Below, in pieces: positions 1,380 through 16,259 of a stretch of 16,259 nucleotides of DNA. Within the stretch, counting starts at the first letter, position 1, and every line of letters starts with the position of its first letter. Location of the stretch: IMG/VR virus record IMGVR_UViG_3300045988_115994, one strand, 5' to 3'. The translations under genes were made by a program, and so were the position numbers. The notes beneath the pieces were generated by a model. That model made no database searches. It worked only from the letters and a program-made list of their open reading frames with translations, and had not been told where the DNA came from. The stretch is from a virus.

Positions 1380-1866
1380 GGACTACCTCTTAAGTTTGCG
1401 GGGAAAACAGCGGCGCGAGATGTACAAACAGCTTGTGCCGCTTGCAAACAAGCAGAAAGTACGAATTGAAAAGCAAGGCTTGGAGAAAGAAAGTGTGCTA
1501 AATGTACTACATAAGCGGACTAACTGGGATATAGATAAGTACAATTCACGCGCTTATCTTAAGTTGGTTCGATTTGTTACAGCGCGCTCTCATACTTTAA
1601 CTGGGATAAAGGAAATAAGGCAGGAACGTACGCAAGCATTACGCGATATGGGAATATCTGAAAATCTGTTAAATGAAGCAGATTTTTATACTTTTTTGCA
1701 TAGTCAAGAATACAAAAGTTTAAAAATGCGCAACCCATCGGAGGATATTATCGAAATTTATGATTTACTTTTTTCGCAGGGTAAGTCACATACAGAAATA
1801 CAACAAGAATTGCAAGAATATTCTAGCGCTACACATGTTTATGTAAAGGGGAGGGCTTTATGGTAA
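1369..1866 (+). CDS. Hypothetical basic helical protein (165 aa from ATG 1369; the ORF track starts at TTG 1348); candidate terminal protein by position only
   Basis: The ORF ends in ATGGTAA, overlapping the polymerase start, as the terminal-protein gene precedes the polymerase gene in phi29. The start overlaps the upstream stop (ATG 1369, TAA 1377-1379). No sequence similarity to phi29 TP was recognised and there is no strong RBS. Confidence 0.5.
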   Translation: MYNKDYLLSLRGKQRREMYKQLVPLANKQKVRIEKQGLEKESVLNVLHKRTNWDIDKYNSRAYLKLVRFVTARSHTLTGIKEIRQERTQALRDMGISENLLNEADFYTFLHSQEYKSLKMRNPSEDIIEIYDLLFSQGKSHTEIQQELQEYSSATHVYVKGRALW

Positions 1867-4043
1867 TATCTGTACAGCAGACTAAAAATGGAAAAGAAAC
1901 GATTGAAACTAAAGAAACAGTGTATTCTGTAGCGTCATACCCATATGACGCTACAGTTTTAGATTGTACTACAGTACGGAAAAAAGGGCGAAACGGACTT
2001 ACATATATAGCGTGTCCGGCAACGTTTGACATAGAAAGTACAACTATAGACGGCGAAAAACCAGAAGCATTTATGTATCATTGGCAGTTTTGCTTGAATG
2101 GTAAAGTCTGTTTTGGGCGAACTTGGGAAGAATGGATAAATTTTATGCATAAGCTAGGAACTACTTTGGAATTGGACGCTAAAAAAGTGTTAGTAATATA
2201 TGTCCATAATTTAGCTTATGAATTTATGTTTATAAAGGATTTTTTGCATATAGAATCACTTTTTGCGAGAGAAGCGCACAAGGTTATTAAAGTTTTAGTT
2301 TGCTTGGGTAATGATTACGGGAAAAGTATAAATAAAGTTGGGAATGTTTCACGTGAAACATTTCTTCTTCCCTTTTTTGAATTTAGGTGTAGTTATTTTT
2401 TATCAAATATGTCTTTATCTAAATTTTGCGAAAATAGCAAATTTTGCACACACTATAAATTAGTAGACACTTATGATTATAGAAAAATACGGACACCGTC
2501 GACGCCGATGACGGAGGAAGAATTAGCGTATTGTTATAACGATGTAAAAGGTTTAGAAGAGTGCATTTTGTCGAAATTAGATGACGAGTGTGACACGTTA
2601 GCTACCATACCTTTAACATCGACAGGATACGTGCGGCGAGAAATGCGTGCAGAGTGCCGAAAACATCCAGAATATCGCGAACTTTTTGAAATACTTATGC
2701 CTACTACACAAATTTATACGTTATTGCGTCAAGCGTTTCGTGGCGGCAATACTCATGCGTCAAGGTACTATGCAGATGCCGTCATAGAGGGAGTTTACAG
2801 CAAAGATAGAGTGTCTAGCTATCCGGCATGTATTGTATCTGATTTATACCCAATGACACCATTTATAGTGTACGAACCTAAGTCTTACGCACAACTTATA
2901 GCGGATTGTGGAAAAAAGAAAAATGCTATAATAATGCGTATAACTTTATTTGATTTAGATGTGCACGATGATGTGACCGTGCCATATATTGATTTTGCGC
3001 ACTGTATAGCCTACAGTAAAAATTATGTAAATGATAACGGACGAGTGTTATCAGCCGATTGGATAACATATGCTTGTACAGAGTTGGACTTTTTAATTAT
3101 AAATAATCAATATAGCTACGATACTATGCGCCTAGAATGGCTAGAGGGCTACAAGGCAGAGAAAGACTACTTGCCTAAACCCATAGTTGACACAGCTCTT
3201 TCTTATTATGACAAGAAAACACAATTAAAAGATGTGAGTGGAAAAGAATATGAGTATGCAAAAAGCAAAAATAAGGCTAATTCCGTTTTTGGTGTTATGG
3301 TTACAGATATATGTCAAGGCGAAATAGAATATATAGATGGCGTTTGGTCTAAGACTATGCCGGATAAGGAAAGTGCTATAGCGGCTTACGCCGCAAGCAA
3401 AAACTCTTTTTTGCTTTATCAATGGGGAGTTTACATTACAGCAAATGCGCGCTATGAACTGCAATGCATGATTGATGCTTGCGGCTATGATTTTGTGTAC
3501 GCAGACACGGATAGTGTAAAATTTATTGGTAAAAAACATTTAAAATCTTTTGACGACAGAAATAATTATTTATTATCCAAAAAACAAAAGTACAGAAATT
3601 ATAGTGATCGTTTAAACGATGATGGCACAACAACGCGATACACGCTCGGTGTATGGGATGATGATGGTTTTTATAAAAAGTTTAAAACATTGGGTGCGAA
3701 AAAGTATGCATATATTGCGGACGAGAAAAACAAAAAAACTGGAGAGATAGAAGAAGTTTTACATGTTACTGTTTCCGGCTTATCAAAAACAAAAGGCGCG
3801 GCAGAACTTGCGCGTGGAAATGGCTTAGCTGATTTTAAAATTGGCAAAATATTTACTGACTCGGGGCGCACAGTGTCATACTTTAATGAGAGCGATGTAC
3901 ATACTATAAAAGTAATAGATTACAATGGAAAAGAAAGTGAGTTTACCACAGCGTCAAACATAGCAATAGTTGATACTACTTATACTTTAGGTGTATCTGA
4001 CGAGTACGCCGCCGTCTTAGGCTCTTGTATAAATTTTGAATAA
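1860..4043 (+). CDS. Protein-primed family B DNA polymerase (phi29 gp2-like), 727 aa
   Basis: RBS GGGGAGGG upstream. Motifs seen: ExoI FDIESTT, ExoII HNLAYEF, ExoIII YCYNDV, motif A DRVSSYP, motif B KNKANSVFG, motif C YADTDS, and KxY as GAKKYAY followed by VTVSGLSK. Motif order and spacing are as in the phi29 polymerase. Confidence 0.95.
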   Translation: MVISVQQTKNGKETIETKETVYSVASYPYDATVLDCTTVRKKGRNGLTYIACPATFDIESTTIDGEKPEAFMYHWQFCLNGKVCFGRTWEEWINFMHKLGTTLELDAKKVLVIYVHNLAYEFMFIKDFLHIESLFAREAHKVIKVLVCLGNDYGKSINKVGNVSRETFLLPFFEFRCSYFLSNMSLSKFCENSKFCTHYKLVDTYDYRKIRTPSTPMTEEELAYCYNDVKGLEECILSKLDDECDTLATIPLTSTGYVRREMRAECRKHPEYRELFEILMPTTQIYTLLRQAFRGGNTHASRYYADAVIEGVYSKDRVSSYPACIVSDLYPMTPFIVYEPKSYAQLIADCGKKKNAIIMRITLFDLDVHDDVTVPYIDFAHCIAYSKNYVNDNGRVLSADWITYACTELDFLIINNQYSYDTMRLEWLEGYKAEKDYLPKPIVDTALSYYDKKTQLKDVSGKEYEYAKSKNKANSVFGVMVTDICQGEIEYIDGVWSKTMPDKESAIAAYAASKNSFLLYQWGVYITANARYELQCMIDACGYDFVYADTDSVKFIGKKHLKSFDDRNNYLLSKKQKYRNYSDRLNDDGTTTRYTLGVWDDDGFYKKFKTLGAKKYAYIADEKNKKTGEIEEVLHVTVSGLSKTKGAAELARGNGLADFKIGKIFTDSGRTVSYFNESDVHTIKVIDYNGKESEFTTASNIAIVDTTYTLGVSDEYAAVLGSCINFE
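2343..2362. repeat. Copy 1 of the 20-bp perfect palindrome AATGTTTCACGTGAAACATT, inside the polymerase CDS
   Basis: Exact 20-mer identical to copies at 5988, 7155 and 11070. It is read in frame as GNVSRETF, between ExoII and ExoIII. Confidence 0.95.
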
Positions 4044-6043: not shown

Positions 6044-6472
6044 ATGTCAAGCAGAAAAATCAGAGGAATTGTAAGAAACATTTTTGTCAAAGATGACAAC
6101 GAAGTATCAATTTTAATCGAGATCGACGAGAAAACAGCGACAGAGCTCCGCGGCGTGTATGATGCAAAAATCGAGAATCCGTTAAAGGACGGTGAGGGCG
6201 ATCTTGAGGGCAAGGTGCTGTACAAGGCACACACAAAATATCCGGTGAACCTTTACATGCAGGGCGACCCTGTGGAAACAGAGGACGAGACGGAAAATAT
6301 CGAAGAAATCCGCAAAATCGGCAATGGTTCGGCTGTAACTATCAGAGTCCGCGAGCAGTTGTACGGTCGCTACAAGTCAAAGAAATTCCAGTCTGCTTAT
6401 CTCAAGGCAATCAATGTACGCGAGCTTGTAGAAGCAGAGCCGTATATGGATTTTGACGAAGATGACAACTAA
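6044..6472 (+). CDS. Candidate single-stranded DNA-binding protein (gp2.5/DUF2815-like), 142 aa
   Basis: RBS AAGGAGA upstream. Evidence for the call: an acidic C-terminal tail (PYMDFDEDDN), PLKDGEGD and IGNGSAVTIRV segments reminiscent of phage gp2.5-type SSBs, and a position in the replication module. The product call is an inference. Confidence 0.5.
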   Translation: MSSRKIRGIVRNIFVKDDNEVSILIEIDEKTATELRGVYDAKIENPLKDGEGDLEGKVLYKAHTKYPVNLYMQGDPVETEDETENIEEIRKIGNGSAVTIRVREQLYGRYKSKKFQSAYLKAINVRELVEAEPYMDFDEDDN

Positions 6473-6490
6473 ATAACGATCAGCCGCAGT

Positions 6491-6797
6491 TCTGCCATCC
6501 CACAGCATGAAACAACATACATGCAGTAGAATGTCATCGAATGGCATTGAACGGCATTGCACAGCATTAAATGTTGTGTGATGCCGATGGATGGCAGATA
6601 AGCGGGTGTATTGCATTACGGGTACTGGACAGTTATTTTGGTTTTCTCTCGTTTCCTCCGACTTGCCTAGTCGAAAATGTCCAGATTTTTATGTCAACCA
6701 GTACCCGTAATGGAGTATTACCCGCTATCCCGTTAAAAGCCCCGTACACCATGCGGAAAAACGCAGGGGTGCAGAGTGGTGTCTGCAAGGATAGCGG
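6491..6797 (+). ncRNA. Candidate structured non-coding RNA (pRNA-like or late-operon leader); not assigned to any known family
   Basis: Perfect long-range complementarities: 6491-6500/6589-6598 (10 bp), 6601-6607/6720-6726 (7 bp), 6615-6628/6698-6711 (14 bp) and 6722-6730/6789-6797 (9 bp). Local hairpins at 6659-6673, 6740-6769 and 6770-6787. The only ORF here has no RBS. Confidence 0.4.
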
Positions 6798-6832
6798 CGA
6801 ACCTCTAAATTAAATAAGGGAGAGTAAAGAAG

Positions 6833-7156
6833 ATGATTTATTTAATTACTTTTTTGTTTATGGTTCTGGATTTTATAAGCGGAATCGTAATGGCAGTGAA
6901 GAACAAGAATTTCAATTCTTCTATTATGCGTGAAGGGCTTTTCAACAAGTTCGGTTCTGTTTGCGTGATTGCTTGCGCGGTGCTGATTGACTGGGGGCAG
7001 ATTTATCTTGATATTGGTTTTACCGTTCCGGTAGCGTCTGCAATGTGCAGTTATATTATTCTTATGGAAATCGGTTCGATTTTGGAAAACGTAGGGAGAA
7101 TAAATAAGAACTTAGTACCCGAGAAAATCCGGTCGATATTAGAAAAGGTTTCATAA
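6833..7156 (+). CDS. Holin (phage holin family 4 / toxin-secretion holin-like), 107 aa
   Basis: RBS AAGGGAGAG upstream. Three hydrophobic segments, an N-terminal VLDFISGIVMAVKNKNFNSS..GLFNK pattern typical of this holin family, and a charged C-terminus. Confidence 0.75.
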   Translation: MIYLITFLFMVLDFISGIVMAVKNKNFNSSIMREGLFNKFGSVCVIACAVLIDWGQIYLDIGFTVPVASAMCSYIILMEIGSILENVGRINKNLVPEKIRSILEKVS

Positions 7157-7174
7157 TGTTTCACGTGAAACATT
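7155..7174. repeat. Copy 3 of the 20-bp palindrome (extends to 24 bp, 7153..7176); overlaps the holin stop codon and abuts the tRNA
   Basis: Exact 20-mer, with flanking AT/AT that extend the palindrome. The tRNA acceptor stem starts at 7177. Confidence 0.95.
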
Positions 7175-7176
7175 AT

Positions 7177-7247
7177 TGGCGCGTAGTTCAGAGGGAGAAC
7201 AGTAGATTCTGACTCTATAGTCGCGGGTTCGATTCCCGCCGCGCTAG
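7177..7247 (+). tRNA. tRNA-Gln, anticodon CUG (71 nt, CCA not encoded)
   Basis: Hand-folded cloverleaf:
- Acceptor TGGCGCG/CGCGCTA (U1-A72, G2-U71), discriminator G.
- D stem GTTC/GAAC with loop AGAGGGA.
- Anticodon stem GTAGA/TCTAT with loop TTCTGAC.
- Variable region AGTC.
- T stem GCGGG/CCCGC with loop TTCGATT.
U1-A72 plus G73 is typical of bacterial tRNA-Gln. Confidence 0.9.
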
Positions 7248-7266
7248 TTTTTGGAGGAAAAGAGAC

Positions 7267-8334
7267 GTGAAGTTTACAAAACCTTATTACAATTTAGATG
7301 AAATTAAAAGTGTAAAAGATTTAGACGGTTGCGAACCGATCTTGAGAATGATTATTGGAAACCGTAGCGCCGGAAAAACCACGGCTTTACTAATTGAAAG
7401 TTTGAATAAACATAAAGAGGATAGTTCGCAAGTTGTATTCTTATACAGAACACAAGACGAGATAGCAAGCAGTGGCAAAATGTATGAAGATGTTTTTGAC
7501 AATTACCCAGAAATGGGTAAAATGGTTACAAATAAAAGTGTAGTTAAAGGGCTTATTAGCGCTATGATTTTACATGACGCGGAGGAAAATCAAAGCGTTT
7601 TAGGCTATGCGGTTTATTTTAACAATCCCGATAAAATCAAAAAATATAGCCCTATGTTTAAAGATGTAAATTTGATTGTTTTTGATGAATTTGTACTTGA
7701 AAACAATGGTTATTTAAAAAATGAGATAACTAAGTTTGAAAGCGTTTTGCGTAGTATATGCCGTGGTAAAGGTAAGCAAGTGCGTGATGTTCCAGTTTAC
7801 ATGCTTGCGAATTATGTAGTTTTGCTAAACCCATATTATATATTTTTTGGTATGCACAAGCGATTGCGTGATAATACAAGGTTTTTACGCGGTCATGGTT
7901 GGGTAGCACAATTTACTATCAATAAAAGCGCTAAGAAAGCGCTTAATGAAAGTGGATTAAGTAAAGTTTTTAGTAATAGTGCTTATACGCTATCATCCGC
8001 TGATGGAATTTATCTATGTGATGCCACGGCTTTTGTTGAAAAAATCAGTGGAAACAGTAACTATATTTTTACTCTTGTATGTGGGAAAGATCGTTTTGCT
8101 GTAAGAGAGTATCCAGAAAAAGGTGTGGTTTATATTGACTACACAGCAGACCCCAACGCAAGACATATTTTTACGTTCGACCCGTCAAGCCACAATGCAG
8201 ATACGCTTATGTTATCGAGTAAGTCTTTTATTTATGATTATTTAAAGAGGGCTTATGATATGGGTCTATTGAGGTTTAAAGACCTTAAATGCAAAAATAT
8301 TGTGTTGGATATATTGAGTGTGAGGTTGATGTAA
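7267..8334 (+). CDS. DNA encapsidation (packaging) ATPase, phi29 gp16-like
   Basis: GTG start 9 nt after GGAGG. Walker A is IIGNRSAGKTT (compare phi29 VIGARGIGKS) and Walker B is NLIVFDEF. N-terminal similarity YYNLDEIKS versus FYNPQKMLS. Confidence 0.9.
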   Translation: MKFTKPYYNLDEIKSVKDLDGCEPILRMIIGNRSAGKTTALLIESLNKHKEDSSQVVFLYRTQDEIASSGKMYEDVFDNYPEMGKMVTNKSVVKGLISAMILHDAEENQSVLGYAVYFNNPDKIKKYSPMFKDVNLIVFDEFVLENNGYLKNEITKFESVLRSICRGKGKQVRDVPVYMLANYVVLLNPYYIFFGMHKRLRDNTRFLRGHGWVAQFTINKSAKKALNESGLSKVFSNSAYTLSSADGIYLCDATAFVEKISGNSNYIFTLVCGKDRFAVREYPEKGVVYIDYTADPNARHIFTFDPSSHNADTLMLSSKSFIYDYLKRAYDMGLLRFKDLKCKNIVLDILSVRLM

Positions 8335-9476
8335 TGGCATTGAGCGATTATAGAGATTATGGTTATAGCAAAGCGGTATGGGATAATTTAATGACATACA
8401 TAAATAACTCTATAGGCGTAGCGGCGTTGATGGGAAATTTATATGCAGAGAGTGGAATAATACCATATAGATGCCAAGGAGATTTTAGCTCCATCAACAA
8501 TTTTTTACCAAGTAAAAATTATACTAAAGACGTAGATAGCGGTGTAGTTAGTGAGTATGATTTTGTGGAACATGGATTATATGAGAATAAAGACGGGTAC
8601 GGGCTTGCGCAATGGACTTATTACACACGTAAACAAGGATATTATAATGCATGGAAAAGTGGCGGCTACTCAAGTATCGGTAGTTTGGAATTAGCTTTAT
8701 TTTATCTTAAATATGAGTTAGAAAATGATTACACTGATACTCTTAATGTGTTAAAAAATGCTAGTGATATTCGTACAGCTAGCACATATGTTCTTTTTAA
8801 TTTTGAAAACCCCGATAATAAAGGGGAAGCAGTACAGAATTTACGGTATAGCTATTCGAAAGATATTTACGATAGTTTTAATGGTTCTGCACCGATTGAA
8901 AGAAAAAGTTTGACTATAACACCAACTAGTACTAGTATTATAGACGGGGGAACTGTTACAATTAGTGTTGAAGCGACCGGAGAGTGGACGTACAACTTAG
9001 GGCACTATCTCTCACTTGTAGAAAAAACTGACGGCGTGCTTGTAATTAGCGGCAATGCAAACACCGCCCAGATTACAACCGCCGTAGCCTTTTGGCTTGT
9101 AGATGATGCAAGTGTGCAAGTCCAATGCCAGATAGGTATTAACCGACCCGCACCGCCCGCGCCGACTATCAGCGTTACGCCATATAGTCAGACCGCAAAT
9201 GTAAACACGATTGTTAGATTTATGGTAAGCGCTAACAGAGCATGGAGCGTTAAAGTACCTAGCGGTGCTAGTTTGTATCGTAAAGACGGTAACTCGGTTT
9301 ATATTTTAATAGGTAATACCGCTTTAACCAGAATTGTCTTAAGATTTTATATCAATGATGATGTGAATATCTATCAAGATGTACCAGTAAATATATTAGG
9401 TGTGTCGCCAATTCCGAGCGGCAGAAAAACGCCTTTAATATATTATTTAAAACCATTTTTAGGAAAAAGGAGGTAA
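8334..9476 (+). CDS. Tail-associated peptidoglycan hydrolase: phi29 gp13 N-terminal lysozyme-like domain plus two Ig-like C-terminal repeats
   Basis: The start ATG overlaps the ATPase stop (TAATG). MGNLYAESG and GYGLAQWT match gp13 MLGNMQSES and GFGLVQWT. The C-terminus has two ~90-aa beta-rich repeats separated by a PAPPAP linker. No LytM motif (HxxxD/HxH) was seen. Confidence 0.8.
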   Translation: MALSDYRDYGYSKAVWDNLMTYINNSIGVAALMGNLYAESGIIPYRCQGDFSSINNFLPSKNYTKDVDSGVVSEYDFVEHGLYENKDGYGLAQWTYYTRKQGYYNAWKSGGYSSIGSLELALFYLKYELENDYTDTLNVLKNASDIRTASTYVLFNFENPDNKGEAVQNLRYSYSKDIYDSFNGSAPIERKSLTITPTSTSIIDGGTVTISVEATGEWTYNLGHYLSLVEKTDGVLVISGNANTAQITTAVAFWLVDDASVQVQCQIGINRPAPPAPTISVTPYSQTANVNTIVRFMVSANRAWSVKVPSGASLYRKDGNSVYILIGNTALTRIVLRFYINDDVNIYQDVPVNILGVSPIPSGRKTPLIYYLKPFLGKRR

Positions 9477-9791: not shown

Positions 9792-11069
9792 TTGGCTAAT
9801 AAAGTAGCGGCAACAAATGTTGCCATATTAAACGCTGTGAGATCTATGCAAAGTCTTGAGTATCGTGACAGAATTCCCGAAGCAACGGCGGAAAATATCT
9901 CGTCTATTTACGAGAGTCTACTGAACATCGTACCGTTGCGTAACGCGTTTGCTAATGCTCTGGTTGAACAGATCATGGAACAGAGGATTGAGACGGTCTT
10001 TTTTGAAAATCCTCTGGGAGTCCTCAAAAGAGATCCTATGCGCTACGGCGGAACGGAAGAAGAAATTTTTGTGAACATGGCAAAGGGTAAGCAGTTTAAC
10101 CAGTTTGCTACAGTAGCAGAGTTATACGCTTACTACCAGACAAGCGTCATGGCGGCTTACCATAAGATCACACCGGCTATCCAGTACGCGGTTACAGTTA
10201 CTTTTGACAACTTGCGTACGGCGTTTAGATCGGAGTACGGCGTGCGCGATCTGATTAACGCAAAAGTGCAGTCACTTTTTGCGGCGGCGAACTGGGACGA
10301 ATATTTATGTATGAAACGTTTGATTGAGAGCGCGAGCGCGGCAGATCAGCTTTATGCAGTTAATGTTGCAGACCCGACAGCGAGTGCGGAGAACGCGAAG
10401 AAGCTGACGAAGCTTGTCAAGGCGTACATTGGGCAAATGAAGTTCCCGCACCCAGAATACAATATTGCCGGAGCAGATTCTTGTGCAAACGATCAAACAA
10501 TTTTTTATATTACAACGCCAGAGATTGATGCAGAGTTAGATGTTGAGGTACTTGCTACCGCGTTTAATATGGACAAGGTGGATATTAACGTCCGAAAGAT
10601 CATCATTGACAAGTTTGATGACCCGAACATTAAGCTTGCGTTATTTGATATGAGATTTTTCAATGTGCGCGAGAATTTCCGGACGCTGACGGATTCGAGA
10701 AATGGTGCGGCGCTGACGTGGAATTATTTTTATACGATGTCAGAGATGTTTTCCTATTCTCCGTTTTTTCCTTGTATCGTCTTTACCACAGACACCGTCG
10801 GGCTTACAACCGTGAGTATTACAGACACCGCCGGAAACGTGGGAACTGATGTGGGGATCACGGCGTTAGTAAGCGGAGACAGCCAGTACACGCCGCAAAT
10901 GCTTGACTATGACGTTGAAGGCGCTACAAGTCAGTATACGTCCTTTATCCCCGGTTCTAATATTTTGCATATTGCAAATGACGAAAAAGCGGCAACACTT
11001 ACGGTCAAAGCAACGTCAAGATATGATAGCACGATCAGCGGAACAGGTACTGTCACAGTCAACCAGTAA
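9792..11069 (+). CDS. Major capsid protein, phi29 gp8-like, with a C-terminal Ig-like (BIG2-type) domain
   Basis: TTG start after GAGAGG. By-eye matches to gp8: NPLGVLKRD versus NPLKKFKKG, DEYLCMKRL versus DEYEYMKLL, IDAELDVEVLATAFNM versus LEAELDVDVLAKAFNM, and LTWNYFY versus LYWNYYY. C-terminal TLTVKATS matches gp8 LTVKATV. Confidence 0.92.
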   Translation: MANKVAATNVAILNAVRSMQSLEYRDRIPEATAENISSIYESLLNIVPLRNAFANALVEQIMEQRIETVFFENPLGVLKRDPMRYGGTEEEIFVNMAKGKQFNQFATVAELYAYYQTSVMAAYHKITPAIQYAVTVTFDNLRTAFRSEYGVRDLINAKVQSLFAAANWDEYLCMKRLIESASAADQLYAVNVADPTASAENAKKLTKLVKAYIGQMKFPHPEYNIAGADSCANDQTIFYITTPEIDAELDVEVLATAFNMDKVDINVRKIIIDKFDDPNIKLALFDMRFFNVRENFRTLTDSRNGAALTWNYFYTMSEMFSYSPFFPCIVFTTDTVGLTTVSITDTAGNVGTDVGITALVSGDSQYTPQMLDYDVEGATSQYTSFIPGSNILHIANDEKAATLTVKATSRYDSTISGTGTVTVNQ

Positions 11070-12835: not shown

Positions 12836-13726
12836 ATGAAAAATCAATCTAAAGACGCTGAATATTTTAGTGTACCACAGTATCGCAATTATTATGTGCG
12901 TTACTTTAATATGTTGCATGAAATGATCGTGAACCGATTTGAATGGTTGGGATTGCCGGATGAAATTCCACCGAGAGTATTAGAAGATTATCTTTTCTGG
13001 TGGGGGCAGGCTGTCTTTTTTAAAGATGATGTACTAGAAAAATACGCCGCTATGAAAACCAACCTTGGCGGTACTGTAGATATTTATGGCGTACCTAACA
13101 TGCGTTTCGCCCATGCACAACAGTATTTTAAAACGCTTGGAAAAAATAACAGTGTCATCATCTGGGACAGTAGCGTAGGTTATCCTAGCGTTGACTATGT
13201 GCAGATGTACGCGGAAAGTTTGGCAAATATGAGGATGACAAGAAATTTAAATATTTACGCGCAAAGAACGCCTGTTGTTATTGCGGGTAGCGAAAATCAG
13301 CGCTTAAGTATAAAAAACCTCTTTAAACAGTATAATGATTTTGTACCATTTATCAGCGTTAAAGACGGAATTAGTAACGTTGAGAACATGAAAGTACTAA
13401 ATCTAAACCCACCTAACGTATTCGGTGACCTTACAACGGCTATGAGACAAGAAATTGCAGACTTTTGCGTCCAATTCGGTATTAGTAATATTGACGGCAC
13501 AAAAAAAGAACGTTTAATTACGAGCGAAGTCGAACAAGATGCTGACCTCACGTTAATTAACCGGCAATCTTTTTTAAGTGTGCGAAAGCGCGCTTGTGAG
13601 CAGATTAACCGTCTGTTTGGACTTGAGGTTGATGTGCAATACATTGGTAACGGCTTAGGTCTGGAAAGAAAAGAAAAACTTGTAAATGGAGGTGACGAAA
13701 ATGTCGACCTATACGACGAAGATTAG
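12836..13726 (+). CDS. Portal (head-tail connector / upper collar), phi29 gp10-like
   Basis: [17 protein letters not shown] matches gp10 [42 protein letters not shown] matches [35 protein letters not shown] matches [23 protein letters not shown] matches ACEKINELYGLNV. Confidence 0.95.
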   Translation: [296 protein letters not shown]

Positions 13727-15331: not shown

Positions 15332-15961
15332 ATGTATAAAAGAGATTATCACCCAGACGAAAATTTAATTTTTGAGACAGAACACTATAAGTTTCCGGTG
15401 TCCAAGAGTACCACGGAAGACCCCGATCTTGCAAGAACTGTAAAAATCGACGAAGCGCTATACGACGAAGCAAAAGTAAGGTTAAACGAAGATACAAAAC
15501 TAAACAAAAAAATTGATGATGAAACCAAAAACAGAGAAAACGCTGACCAGTCGTTGGAATCAGAAATCTATAAAATAACGCCAAGTATCAAATTTTTGCG
15601 TTTTGGTAAAGATGATTTTACCACGTTAAGCGGTTCTCCGGTAAATGTAGAAGTTTTTATAACAATGCTAAAGATAAATGATATTGTTATTATGTTTCAT
15701 AGAGTTGTATTCACCGGAAATGCTCCAAGTAATTTTATTTCTTACACTGCACAACTAGATCTGACAAAAGTAATACCGAGCGGCTACAAGGTAAGCAATT
15801 TTAGTATATGGCAATCTTTAATACGCAAAGACGATAACATTTTAGCTACTCGTAGCAATGATATACAAATTATAAACAGTAATAAATATCTGTACTACCA
15901 AACGAAAGAACCTACTGGATGCGTTTTTTGCGGTACTACAATTTGCATGTTATCGGAATAA
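15332..15961 (+). CDS. Second fibre or receptor-binding-like protein (209 aa)
   Basis: RBS GGGAGGG upstream. An N-terminal fibre-like motif (EHYKFPVSKSTTEDPDLARTVKIDEALYDE), a short charged coiled-coil segment, and a C-terminal beta-rich domain. The last base of the stop codon TAA (15959-15961) is the first base of the right ITR. Confidence 0.5.
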   Translation: MYKRDYHPDENLIFETEHYKFPVSKSTTEDPDLARTVKIDEALYDEAKVRLNEDTKLNKKIDDETKNRENADQSLESEIYKITPSIKFLRFGKDDFTTLSGSPVNVEVFITMLKINDIVIMFHRVVFTGNAPSNFISYTAQLDLTKVIPSGYKVSNFSIWQSLIRKDDNILATRSNDIQIINSNKYLYYQTKEPTGCVFCGTTICMLSE

Positions 15962-16259
15962 GTTATCCACACCAAACAAGTGTTCGATAGTGTTCGCCCA
16001 CCAAAGACAGGTTGTGTCCGCGGTGAACGGACACTTTTTGTTTTAATTGTATATACAATTATGATAAATTGTTGTATTGTCTGATTTCAACAAAATCAAT
16101 GGTAAAAGTGCACAAAATTTTGATGTATGTTTGTGCAATATTACTATTGACATCTTATATTTGATCAAGTTTCCCATAGCAAATTTAATATCTGAAAATC
16201 GAACAGGTGTTTGTCTTTTTGGGGAAAACGGTGTCCGTCCTACACGGACTATGTGACTT
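15961..16259. repeat. Right inverted terminal repeat (ITR), 299 bp
   Basis: Exact reverse complement of 1..299. Confidence 0.97.
16014..16044 (+). terminator. Intrinsic terminator inside the right ITR
   Basis: GTGTCCG (16014-16020), loop CGGTGAA, CGGACAC (16028-16034), then TTTTTGTTTT. The mirror copy at 216..246 faces outward on the minus strand. Confidence 0.7.

Follow-up and report, generated by a model that had tools for sequence, protein, structure and literature searches.

The window, by which we mean the whole 16,259-nt stretch of phage DNA that was analysed, encodes a protein-primed PolB (PolB_2), a p6-like protein, a gp16 ATPase, a Phi29_MCP capsid protein, a gp9 tail knob and a gp10 connector. 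Its terminal inverted repeats (299 bp) indicate that the genome is complete, and the window is thus a 16.3-kb genome of a phi29-like phage. As would be expected of a carrier of prohead or packaging RNA (pRNA), the phage is a phi29-like podovirus with protein-primed replication and a gp16-type DNA encapsidation ATPase that has no nuclease domain. The ATPase gene occupies 7267-8334 on the + strand, with PF05894 (Podovirus_Gp16) covering residues 21-349 of 355. The sole large internal non-coding gap lies at 6473-6832, mid-genome in the leader of a holin gene (PF05105 and phrog_199) and on the same strand as all genes. The holin ribosome-binding site, AAGGGAGAG at 6816-6824, and the ATG at 6833 (together 6816-6835, + strand) lie outside both of the competing helices described below. 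The gap folds far better than its shuffles on the + strand (z = -8.5), and the - strand also folds well (z = -7.1). Phased GGCA boxes resembling DNA-binding sites are present just upstream of the structured region, at 6530-6599.

Searches with known families returned little from this region. At the gathering score Rfam matched only tRNA-Gln in the whole window, and in E-value mode 6400-6900 gave only chance miRNA-like matches and a partial Mahella-1; no Rfam riboswitch, aptamer or ribozyme matched the window. A blastn search of the phage collection with 6044-7260 found no match, and no promoter or terminator belonging to the RNA itself is visible in the window scan. An open reading frame at 6571-6813 (80 aa) was rejected as a protein: it has no Pfam match, and indels that are not multiples of three break the frame in relatives.

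The first-pass annotation had pointed to a segment ahead of the holin gene, CCCGCTATCC at 6721-6730, with one partner upstream (GATAAGCGGGT, 6597-6607) and another downstream (GGATAGCGG, 6789-6797), and to a pyrimidine tract between them (CTCTCGTTTCCTCC, 6646-6659); these positions, and that of the ribosome-binding site, are as it gave them. Both pairings are confirmed, and CCGCTATCC (6722-6730) is able to pair with either partner. The downstream pairing is a perfect inverted repeat of 9 bp that ends 19 nt ahead of the holin ribosome-binding site, and the upstream one comprises 7 bp (6601-6607/6720-6726) and 3 bp more across a 1-nt bulge, which RNAfold lengthens to 6590-6612/6714-6734. The helices are rivals for 6722-6730, with similar predicted energies (within about 5 kcal/mol). 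The minimum free energy (MFE) fold of the RNA 6590-6812 (-81.8 kcal/mol) contains the upstream pairing, and forcing the downstream helix costs 5.4 kcal/mol; when the RNA is begun at 6608, P for the downstream helix is about 1. When 6473-6832 was shuffled 2000 times with dinucleotides preserved, a perfect 9-bp inverted repeat within 150 nt turned up in 10.9% of the shuffles, and one segment with both a 9-bp downstream and a 7-bp upstream partner in only 0.7%. Folding energies set against shuffles give z = -7.8 for the hairpin 6597-6730 and z = -3.15 for the core 6718-6800. Two features were absent from the earlier description: a long covarying hairpin (6609-6628/6698-6717) has the upstream partner as its base, and the 58 nt inside the downstream helix form a conserved two-hairpin junction.

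Folded alone, 6718-6800 gives as its MFE structure a three-way-junction core of 76 nt (6722-6797, + strand) made up of helix A, helix C, a CE bulge, helix E and hairpin D. Helix A is the downstream pairing, with CCGCUAUCC (6722-6730) as its 5' strand and GGAUAGCGG (6789-6797) as its 3' strand, and all nine of its pairs covary in alignment A4: the strands read AAAUGGUUU/AAACCAUUU in relative L010 and CGAUUCGGA/UCCGAAUUG in L011, and U6726-A6793 becomes C-G in L001 and L004. Compensatory changes are found in all five pairs of helix C (6739-6743/6766-6770) and in three of the four pairs of helix E (6752-6755/6762-6765), whose loop, GAAAAA at 6756-6761, belongs to a GRAAA(A) type common to all subfamilies. 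The stem of hairpin D (6771-6775/6782-6786) covaries at three of five pairs in A4, including an A-U to G-C change at 6773/6784 in three relatives. Over the whole of A4 pairing extends to 94.7% of cells, and both sides have changed in 21 of 27 pairs; the covariation score is 0.634, as against at most 0.144 when the partners are slid. Beyond helix A a single-stranded 3' tail, CGAACCUCUAAAU at 6798-6810 (consensus GCGAAMCUCUAAA), is kept in the window and in the L008, L010 and L011 clades. G.U pairs are seen on the + strand only, so the RNA belongs to that strand.

The core also contains complementary loops. The CE bulge, GUACACCA (6744-6751), is 8 nt long and lies on the 5' side only, and its CACCA (6747-6751) is complementary to the loop of hairpin D, GUGGUG (6776-6781). 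This complementarity covaries: the window has CACCA/UGGUG, and the pairs CACC/GGUG, AACC/GGUU and, in L014, AUCC/GGAU are found, with one loop-loop pair C-G in the window clade and A-U in the L008, L010 and L011 clades (A4 column 44-80: 15 AU, 6 CG). Helices C and D are equal in length (5 bp each), and a pseudoknot within a single molecule could thus take the place of loop pairing between molecules. When the whole window was scanned with a descriptor of this architecture, 6722-6797 was the only match on the + strand, and the - strand gave a single match, at 13088-13159. A model built from the core fold, R1, recovered all the relatives at 96-122 bits.

Immediately 5' of helix A, and separated from it by 0 to 4 nt, lies a second conserved element, hairpin H1 (6609-6717, + strand). 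In alignment A1 its stem (6609-6628/6698-6717) has 100% of cells paired and six of 19 pairs compensated, including G.U pairs possible on the + strand alone; it contains a conserved G.G mismatch (6613/6713) and a variable apex. Within this otherwise variable apex every clade that has H1 carries a UUCCUC or CUCCC motif, which in the window is the pyrimidine tract CUCUC...CCUCC (6646-6659, + strand). H1 is found in the L008, L010 and L011 clades and is absent from L014 and L015. Folding adds a 5' flap (6590-6608, + strand), which contains 6597-6607 and extends the base of H1 onto 6718-6734 as the rival of helix A. Of the flap cells in the near clade 95% are paired and three are not (in L001 an A.C at 6601/6726), and outside the window clade this extension is not kept. 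A sigma-70 promoter with GATAAG (6597-6602) as its -10 hexamer would take the flap out of the RNA and was rejected on three grounds: L004 and L005 have GGGTAG or GGGGGG in place of the hexamer, the promoter scan is blank at 6597-6602, and the base of H1 (6602-6608/6719-6725) is transcribed, because in the L008 clade it differs, reading GGUAC/GUACC, and still pairs.

RNAs of the same architecture occur elsewhere among phi29-like phages. An analogous RNA directly adjoins the gp16-type ATPase gene in at least 40 distant relatives, including the cultured Clostridium phages HM2 and CS229P1. In these two the RNA occupies about 6093-6195 of LT600745.1 and 10554-10664 of OP172772.1, respectively. In two phages whose ATPases are only 42-47% identical, L015 and L014, R1 matches the gap right behind the ATPase gene (E = 4e-5 and 1.4e-3, respectively); these RNAs have a helix A of 13-16 bp and new loop pairs. 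At 30 of 64 more distant loci the architecture is present next to the ATPase gene, against one of 64 reverse-complement controls and 12 of 192 shuffles. When complementarity of the loops was not made a requirement, it was found in 16 of 29 cases, compared with 14% for loops cross-matched between loci; an earlier loop test (26 of 26 complementary) was discarded as circular, since the descriptor itself demanded complementarity. When 32 such RNAs were aligned with MAFFT, pairing extended to 89% of cells, compensation was seen in 27 of 33 pairs and each of the four loop-loop pairs covaried; the relatives' loop pairs include AACC/GGUU, AUCC/GGAU, ACCA/UGGU and more than 15 others.

These RNAs share with that of the window the architecture, the covarying loops, the GRAAA loop of helix E and a neighbourhood of ATPase and lysis genes. 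The L014, L015, HM2, L040 and CS229P1 RNAs differ from it in a helix A of 13-18 bp with bulges that is built from the 5' and 3' ends, in the absence of H1 and in their position directly downstream of the ATPase gene, often with a terminator after them. A significant model score links only L014 and L015 to the window RNA: R1 had no match at E <= 1 in 65 distant loci, R2 (a model of the largest subfamily) did not match the window-type RNAs, and neither model matched HM2, whose RNA was recognized by eye and MFE fold. Since R2 misses the window type, the unity of the family rests on architecture, on position and on the L014/L015 bridge. The surroundings of the RNA vary. In the window, in L008-L011 and in L014 and L015 a holin or small lysis-type gene follows directly on the same strand; HM2 has an intrinsic terminator 3' of the RNA, so that a terminator and a new promoter precede the next gene, and the L040 type also has a terminator after the RNA; convergent genes follow it in L040 and CS229P1; and in L073 and L095 it is encoded on the other strand, antisense to the ATPase operon. 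The HM2 terminator, the convergent genes and the strand reversal indicate that the RNA acts as an independent element. Across the subfamilies the gp16 ATPase gene, and not the holin, is the constant neighbour.

The closest parallel is the pRNA of phi29 and other Bacillus Salasmaviridae (RF00044, Phage_pRNA). Both phages are protein-primed podoviruses that encode a gp16-type ATPase together with a capsid and connector of the phi29 type, and both RNAs are three-way junctions with elements in the same order and polarity (A, C, 5' CE bulge, E, C', D, A'). RF00044 has helix A, 1 nt, helix C, a 9-nt 5' bulge (GAUUAAACC), helix E (4 bp, 6-nt loop), C', UUU, hairpin D (6 bp, UGGUU) and A'; the window has helix A, 8 nt, helix C, the 8-nt 5' bulge GUACACCA, helix E (4 bp, 6-nt loop), C', 0 nt, hairpin D (5 bp, GUGGUG), AA and A'. 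In both, 4-5 nt of the CE bulge are complementary by Watson-Crick pairing to the D loop and the complementarity covaries, and the phi29 loop pair AACC/GGUU is itself used by the L008, L010 and L011 clades. In pRNA the two loops form Watson-Crick pairs between molecules (PMC5066667), and the gp16 ATPase is pRNA-dependent (PMC3362512, PMC11476376). The two RNAs also differ. Helix A has 9 bp in the window and falls short of the long bulged helix (>20 bp) of a typical pRNA, which has 22-24 bp in phi29; helix C has 5 bp as against 9 bp; the junction strands are 8/0/2 nt as against 1/3/0 nt; and only the window has a 110-nt hairpin, H1, joined 5' of helix A. The phi29 pRNA lies at an end of the genome and has a promoter (A1) and a terminator to itself, whereas the window RNA is found mid-genome in the holin leader. 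RF00044 did not match the window at the gathering score or at E <= 10, nor any of 10 relatives, while phi29 itself scored 145 bits, and R1 in turn did not match the phi29 pRNA.

Two other RNA classes share part of this design. The purine riboswitch and the hammerhead ribozyme likewise have two equal arms side by side with complementary loop nucleotides. Unlike them, the window RNA has no CUGAUGA or GAAA core, no purine-riboswitch junction and no Rfam match, and one of its loop partners is an internal bulge and not a hairpin loop. A hammerhead or other ribozyme core was considered for it and rejected, as no conserved junction motif or Rfam match was found.

We conclude that 6722-6797 is probably the core of a pRNA-like non-coding RNA of a phi29-like phage from outside Bacillus, with the downstream pairing as its helix A and the gp16-type ATPase as its presumed protein partner. 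By analogy with phi29, the CE and D loops would pair between RNA molecules and build a ring on the portal, and this ring would dock the gp16-type ATPase for DNA packaging. The upstream pairing is a clade-specific basal extension of the neighbouring hairpin H1. H1 may stack on the short 9-bp helix A and so supply the long “spoke” that in phi29 pRNA and the distant relatives is built from the 5' and 3' ends; H1 and helix A together would then amount to a naturally permuted helix A. Active circularly permuted pRNAs were reportedly engineered by the Guo laboratory in the 1990s. If H1 stacks on helix A, of which the 0-4-nt linker is the one sign, the window RNA would resemble these constructs in having a spoke closed distally by a loop and its ends at an internal nick, the window version being natural. 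The competition between the flap (6590-6608) and the 3' strand (6789-6797) would represent strand exchange at the nick of this composite helix. On such an arrangement the functional RNA would be expected to have its start or a processing site near 6602-6609; alternatively, tertiary or protein contacts could pay the roughly 5 kcal/mol.

What, then, of regulation of the holin? The first-pass annotation saw in the exclusive helices an attenuator or expression platform that times the holin and late operon, possibly aided by the anti-SD-like CCUCC in H1. The competition is real, with conformers close in energy, a CU-rich anti-SD-like motif recurs in the H1 apex of all clades that have this hairpin, and the element lies only 19 nt ahead of the ribosome-binding site. 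As in attenuators and riboswitch platforms, one segment has two mutually exclusive partners that are direct repeats. Those systems work by a terminator or by sequestration of the ribosome-binding site, and in 6473-6832 there is no terminator-like stem with a U tract, the downstream helix being followed by CGAACCUCUAAAUUAAAUAAGG. Gating through the ribosome-binding site fares no better: neither helix touches 6816-6824, and the predicted mean unpaired probability of this site is 0.29 when helix A is imposed on the fold and 0.26 when the upstream pairing is. Judged by whether relatives conserve both pairings, the regulatory model holds up for the near clade but not for the family at large, in which the downstream helix is kept and covaries in every relative compared. 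Among the five closest relatives pairing is retained in 95% of upstream cells and 100% of downstream cells, with one compensated position each; L001 compensates the downstream helix and not the upstream one. In the L008 clade the hairpin base GGUAC/GUACC has only 1 nt in common with the downstream helix, and the overlap falls to 0-2 nt in the L008-majority, L010 and L011 clades; L014 and L015 keep the downstream helix with no upstream hairpin at all. MFE folds of the L008 clade do show the upstream side capturing 1 to 8 of the 9 nt of helix A, but these counts were not taken as conservation because they vary and depend on weak A-U and G.U pairs. A sensor that would choose between the conformers was sought among Rfam aptamers and in the 80-aa frame, neither of which gave a match. 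A holin-timing role is also at odds with the relatives in which the RNA is followed by no holin, and it leaves the enclosed junction and its covarying loops without a role. The attenuator reading is not supported, and we regard it as improbable.

Other explanations keep the RNA and change its function. It could be a conserved structured RNA unconnected with packaging, in which the CE bulge and D loop form a pseudoknot in cis and the whole serves as a leader element for the lysis genes, for example a riboswitch-like sensor, a protein-binding site or a stability or processing element. The holin or lysis-type gene downstream in the window, L008-L011, L014 and L015, the equal lengths of helices C and D that would let the loops meet in cis, the lack of a visible promoter or terminator of its own in the window and the lack of a sequence-level match to RF00044 are all in keeping with this. 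However, a leader would not be expected to be separated from the next gene by a terminator and promoter (HM2), to precede convergent genes or to run antisense to the ATPase operon, nor to keep the ATPase gene and not the holin beside it; there is no Rfam riboswitch or ribozyme match, and loops that vary freely while staying complementary are typical of kissing contacts and not of ligand pockets. We consider this reading unlikely, if less so than the attenuator. H1 and the flap might instead be a processing hairpin of the RNase III type that parts early from late messages and makes the 5' end of the downstream RNA, the “switch” being then between precursor and processed forms. The stem of H1, which exceeds 20 bp, keeps its shape but not its sequence and includes the conserved internal G.G mismatch, would suit such a hairpin, and removal of the flap (start at 6608) gives helix A with P about 1; yet H1 is absent from subfamilies that still have the RNA, and its conserved CU-rich apex would go unexplained. 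As an account of the locus this seems very improbable, and such processing would be compatible with the pRNA-like reading. Scarcely credible, finally, is a DNA-level element (a cruciform or protein-binding inverted repeats) or a chance palindrome: the - strand folds well too and the phased GGCA boxes lie close by, but many conserved G.U pairs of the + strand would be A.C on the other, a DNA element gives no rationale for a three-way junction or loop-loop covariation, and the two-partner arrangement is rare in shuffles.

No other RNA is known to form an indispensable structural component of a motor that packages viral DNA, and RNA nanotechnology makes heavy use of pRNA. According to a 2024 review, pRNA occurs only in phi29 and related Bacillus phages (PMC11476376). 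Detection of a pRNA in archaeal ampullaviruses is mentioned in one paper, and our literature search found no report of pRNA in other bacterial phi29-like phages. Returning to the pRNA-like reading, we tentatively suggest, as a possibility short of a probable one, that pRNA is not peculiar to the Bacillus phi29-type phages and that phi29-like phages of gut and Clostridia hosts possess a large family of packaging RNAs, diverse in sequence, whose kissing loops covary freely. In the window clade the RNA would be naturally permuted, H1 replacing the distal ATPase-binding spoke, and the competition between flap and 3' strand would act as a maturation checkpoint at which only correctly started or processed RNA closes the junction. 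If this is true, RNA-dependent motors would be widespread among small podoviruses, dozens of natural kissing-loop pairs and three-way-junction variants would become available for structural and engineering work, and the evolutionary origin of pRNA would become testable. A rule for annotating thousands of phage genomes from metagenomes would also follow. For the window itself, a speculative holin switch gives way to a concrete, testable RNA. RNAs of this kind are unannotated even in the cultured isolates HM2 and CS229P1.

The sole large internal non-coding stretch of the window (6473-6832) is exceptionally structured, this 360-nt gap folding with z = -8.5 on the + strand and z = -7.1 on the - strand. 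The first-pass annotation had described within it two mutually exclusive pairings upstream of the holin gene, and all of its coordinates agree with the window sequence. CCGCTATCC (6722-6730) pairs downstream with GGATAGCGG (6789-6797) through 9 perfect bp (inverted repeat I8), and upstream with GATAAGCGGGT (6597-6607) through 7 bp and, beyond a 1-nt bulge, 3 more. The holin ribosome-binding site (RBS) AAGGGAGAG (6816-6824) lies 19 nt 3' of the downstream arm, ahead of the ATG at 6833. At least one perfect 9-bp inverted repeat (within 150 nt) turns up in 10.9% of 2000 dinucleotide-preserving shuffles of the gap; one segment able to pair over 9 bp downstream and over 7 bp upstream turns up in only 0.7% of them, so the two-partner arrangement is unlikely to be due to chance. 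That annotation missed a long hairpin (H1), of which the upstream partner is just the base, and two further hairpins formed by the 58 nt inside the downstream helix. Predicted energies for RNA 6590-6812 favour the extended H1 over the downstream helix by 5.4 kcal/mol; in an RNA starting at 6608 the downstream helix is predicted to form (P ~1).

Two competing helices are a bare fact, but do they constitute the proposed attenuator or expression platform? A scan of 6473-6832 found no terminator-like site, the RBS lies outside both helices, and forcing one helix or the other makes no difference to the predicted probability that the RBS is unpaired (0.29 vs 0.26). The attenuator interpretation is therefore not supported, and what the competition means can only be inferred.

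The downstream helix (hereafter helix A) closes a + strand RNA, 6722-6797, and in isolation this core has exactly the following fold as its minimum free energy structure (-33.8 kcal/mol). The 5' strand of the 9-bp helix A is followed by an 8-nt joining strand and helix C (6739-6743 with 6766-6770). Between the strands of helix C lie the 8-nt CE bulge GUACACCA (6744-6751), on the 5' side only, and helix E (4 bp, 6-nt loop GAAAAA), directly after which comes the 3' strand of helix C. Hairpin D (5 bp, loop GUGGUG, 6776-6781) and an AA linker lead to the 3' strand of helix A. CACCA of the CE bulge (6747-6751) is complementary to UGGUG of the D loop (6777-6781).

Relatives were found through the ATPase protein, an approach blind to the RNA, and comprise 5 IMG/VR contigs (87-99% ATPase identity), Logan and ENA contigs (39-89%) and 80 further IMG/VR loci (35-80%); among cultured phages, those closest in ATPase sequence are the Clostridium phages HM2 (42% identity) and CS229P1-3 (34%). 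Every relative with at least 55% identity retains a non-coding gap of 330-400 nt before the holin gene. In a MAFFT alignment of the 6 closest sequences the H1 stem (6/19 pairs compensated), the downstream helix (U6726-A6793 becoming C-G in two sequences) and the three inner helices (7/14 pairs compensated) are each 100% paired. A covariance model of 6707-6817 (R1) recovered the element, with scores of 96-122 bits, in every relative whose ATPase is at least 55% identical. Across 22 distinct sequences derived with R1, 94.7% of cells are paired vs 68% in shuffles, 21 of 27 pairs have changed on both sides, and the covariation score is 0.634 vs at most 0.144 with partners slid by 1-3 columns. Helix A is completely rewritten in other clades, as AAAUGGUUU/AAACCAUUU in L010 and CGAUUCGGA/UCCGAAUUG in L011. 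The complementarity of CE bulge and D loop also covaries, reading CACC/GGUG in the window clade, AACC/GGUU in the L008, L010 and L011 clades, AUCC/GGAU in L014 and ACCA/UGGU in L015; the loop-loop pair formed by alignment columns 44 and 80 is A-U 15 times and C-G 6 times. Since G.U pairs are frequent on the + strand only, this is an RNA structure of that strand. It is nearly certain that a conserved three-way-junction RNA exists here that covaries and has complementary loops.

Its layout agrees element by element with the consensus of Rfam RF00044 ('Phage_pRNA', the phi29 packaging RNA), which displayed on phi29 reads helix A, 1 nt, helix C, a 9-nt 5' bulge (GAUUAAACC), helix E (4 bp, 6-nt loop), the 3' strand of C, UUU, hairpin D (loop UGGUU) and the 3' strand of A. 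The AACC/GGUU loop pair of phi29 is also that of the window's sister clades (L008, L010, L011). In pRNA, Watson-Crick CE bulge-D loop pairs between molecules produce a ring on the prohead (PMC5066667). RF00044 detected neither the window RNA nor any relative, phi29 itself scoring 145 bits. We lean towards regarding the 6722-6797 RNA as pRNA-like, with the downstream helix as its helix A; it may also function in packaging and form rings. A 2024 review describes pRNA as exclusive to phi29 and its relatives among Bacillus phages (PMC11476376), one paper mentions its detection in archaeal ampullaviruses, and searches of open-access full text gave no account of pRNA for non-Bacillus phi29-like phages.

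By gene content the window is a phi29-like podovirus, and the genes listed are all on the + strand: a protein-primed family-B DNA polymerase (1860-4043), a p6-like protein, the holin (6833-7156), a tRNA-Gln with anticodon CUG (7176-7248), a gp16-type encapsidation ATPase (7267-8334), a gp13-like lysozyme, the Phi29 major capsid protein, the gp9 tail knob and the gp10 connector. The tRNA gene separates the holin gene from that of the ATPase. As listed, the ATPase ORF and the lysozyme-domain ORF that comes next (8289-9476) overlap by 46 nt (8289-8334), and the true start of the latter may lie further downstream than 8289. The ends (1-299 and 15961-16259) are a perfect 299-bp inverted terminal repeat, far longer than the 6 bp of phi29, and the window is thus the complete linear genome of a protein-primed phage. 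An Amidase_3 endolysin gene lies at the left end (395-1117), far from the holin at 6833, so the lysis genes are split between genome halves.

A serious rival to the pRNA-like reading was that the RNA is a leader element for lysis genes, as it lies 5' of a holin-type gene in the window, L008-L011, L014 and L015. The distant relatives decide against this. In L015 (28.9 bits, E = 4e-5) and L014 (22.8 bits, E = 1.4e-3), R1 matches the gap directly 3' of the ATPase gene, and both RNAs have a long bulged helix A and no H1. A structure descriptor written for the architecture, applied to the 300 nt that follow the ATPase gene at 64 loci (35-43% ATPase identity), found it in 30, compared with 1/64 reverse complements and 12/192 shuffles; over 15 distinct complementary loop pairs occur among its matches. 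When complementarity was not required it was still present in 16 of 29 distinct top-scoring junctions; the controls gave 14% with loops cross-matched between loci and 11% with D-loop letters shuffled. In a MAFFT alignment of 32 distant RNAs, helix A has 18 bp in three segments; over the alignment 89% of cells are paired, 27/33 pairs are compensated and 4/4 loop-loop pairs covary. The model built from it (R2) matches cultured CS229P1 at 64.7 bits (L102 3553-3663, OP172772.1 10554-10664; loops CUGUA/UACAG), in an unannotated gap 3' of the 'DNA packaging protein' gene and 5' of convergent genes. The HM2 RNA (L101 ~3544-3646, LT600745.1 ~6093-6195; loops GUAGU/ACUAC), also unannotated, is directly 3' of the packaging ATPase gene; an intrinsic terminator comes after it, ahead of the TTGATA-17-TATAAT promoter of the next gene. 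In L040 the RNA precedes a terminator hairpin and an ORF of 671 aa in convergent orientation. R2 matches in L073 (3597-3712) and L095 (3708-3816) are on the - strand, opposite to the ATPase, which implies a transcription unit of their own. These placements make the gp16 ATPase gene the constant neighbour across subfamilies, with the RNA behaving as an independent element.

The window, L008, L010 and L011 clades all conserve the H1 stem (6609-6628 with 6698-6717, inverted repeat I3), whereas L014, L015, HM2 and the L040 type have no H1. All H1-bearing clades keep a G.G mismatch (6613/6713), with a U.G two pairs below. The apex is variable, yet never lacks an anti-SD-like tract, UUCCUC or CUCCC (6646-6659 in the window); pairing of this CU-rich apex with purine-rich Shine-Dalgarno sequences is conceivable. 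Only in the window clade does the H1 base reach over helix A (GCGGGUG with UUACCCGC, GAUA with UAUC), the extension being 95% paired; it is compensated in L004 (A-U to G-C) and uncompensated in L001 (A.C), where helix A is nevertheless compensated. The H1 base of the L008 clade (GGUAC/GUACC) stops exactly at the start of helix A, with 1 nt in common, and in L010 and L011 the overlap is at most 2 nt. Helix A is 9 bp long in the window vs 13-24 bp elsewhere. Given so short a helix and a linker of 0-4 nt, H1 may stack on helix A and serve as a distal spoke, in which case the 5' flap (6590-6608) and the 3' strand would exchange at the nick.

Other features of the gap were noted. The sister clades have an extra G+C-rich hairpin without a U tract between the conserved 3' tail of the RNA and the holin RBS (L008 ~2505-2545, L011 ~2583-2615, L010 ~2600-2630), which is absent in the window clade. 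In the window, a perfect 10-bp A/U-only inverted repeat (I5, 6808-6817 and 6838-6847) surrounds the holin RBS and start codon, and the RBS is partly paired with early holin coding sequence in the predicted folds of both conformers. At 6530-6599 (also 6493 and 6504) there are ~7 phased 10-nt units in which GGCA, GTCA or AGCA, or TGCC as read on the opposite strand, recurs with a 10-nt period; the same phased (A)ATGGCAT boxes are also found in the L008-L011 gaps. These boxes 5' of the RNA and late genes look like a DNA-binding-site array or promoter-control region.
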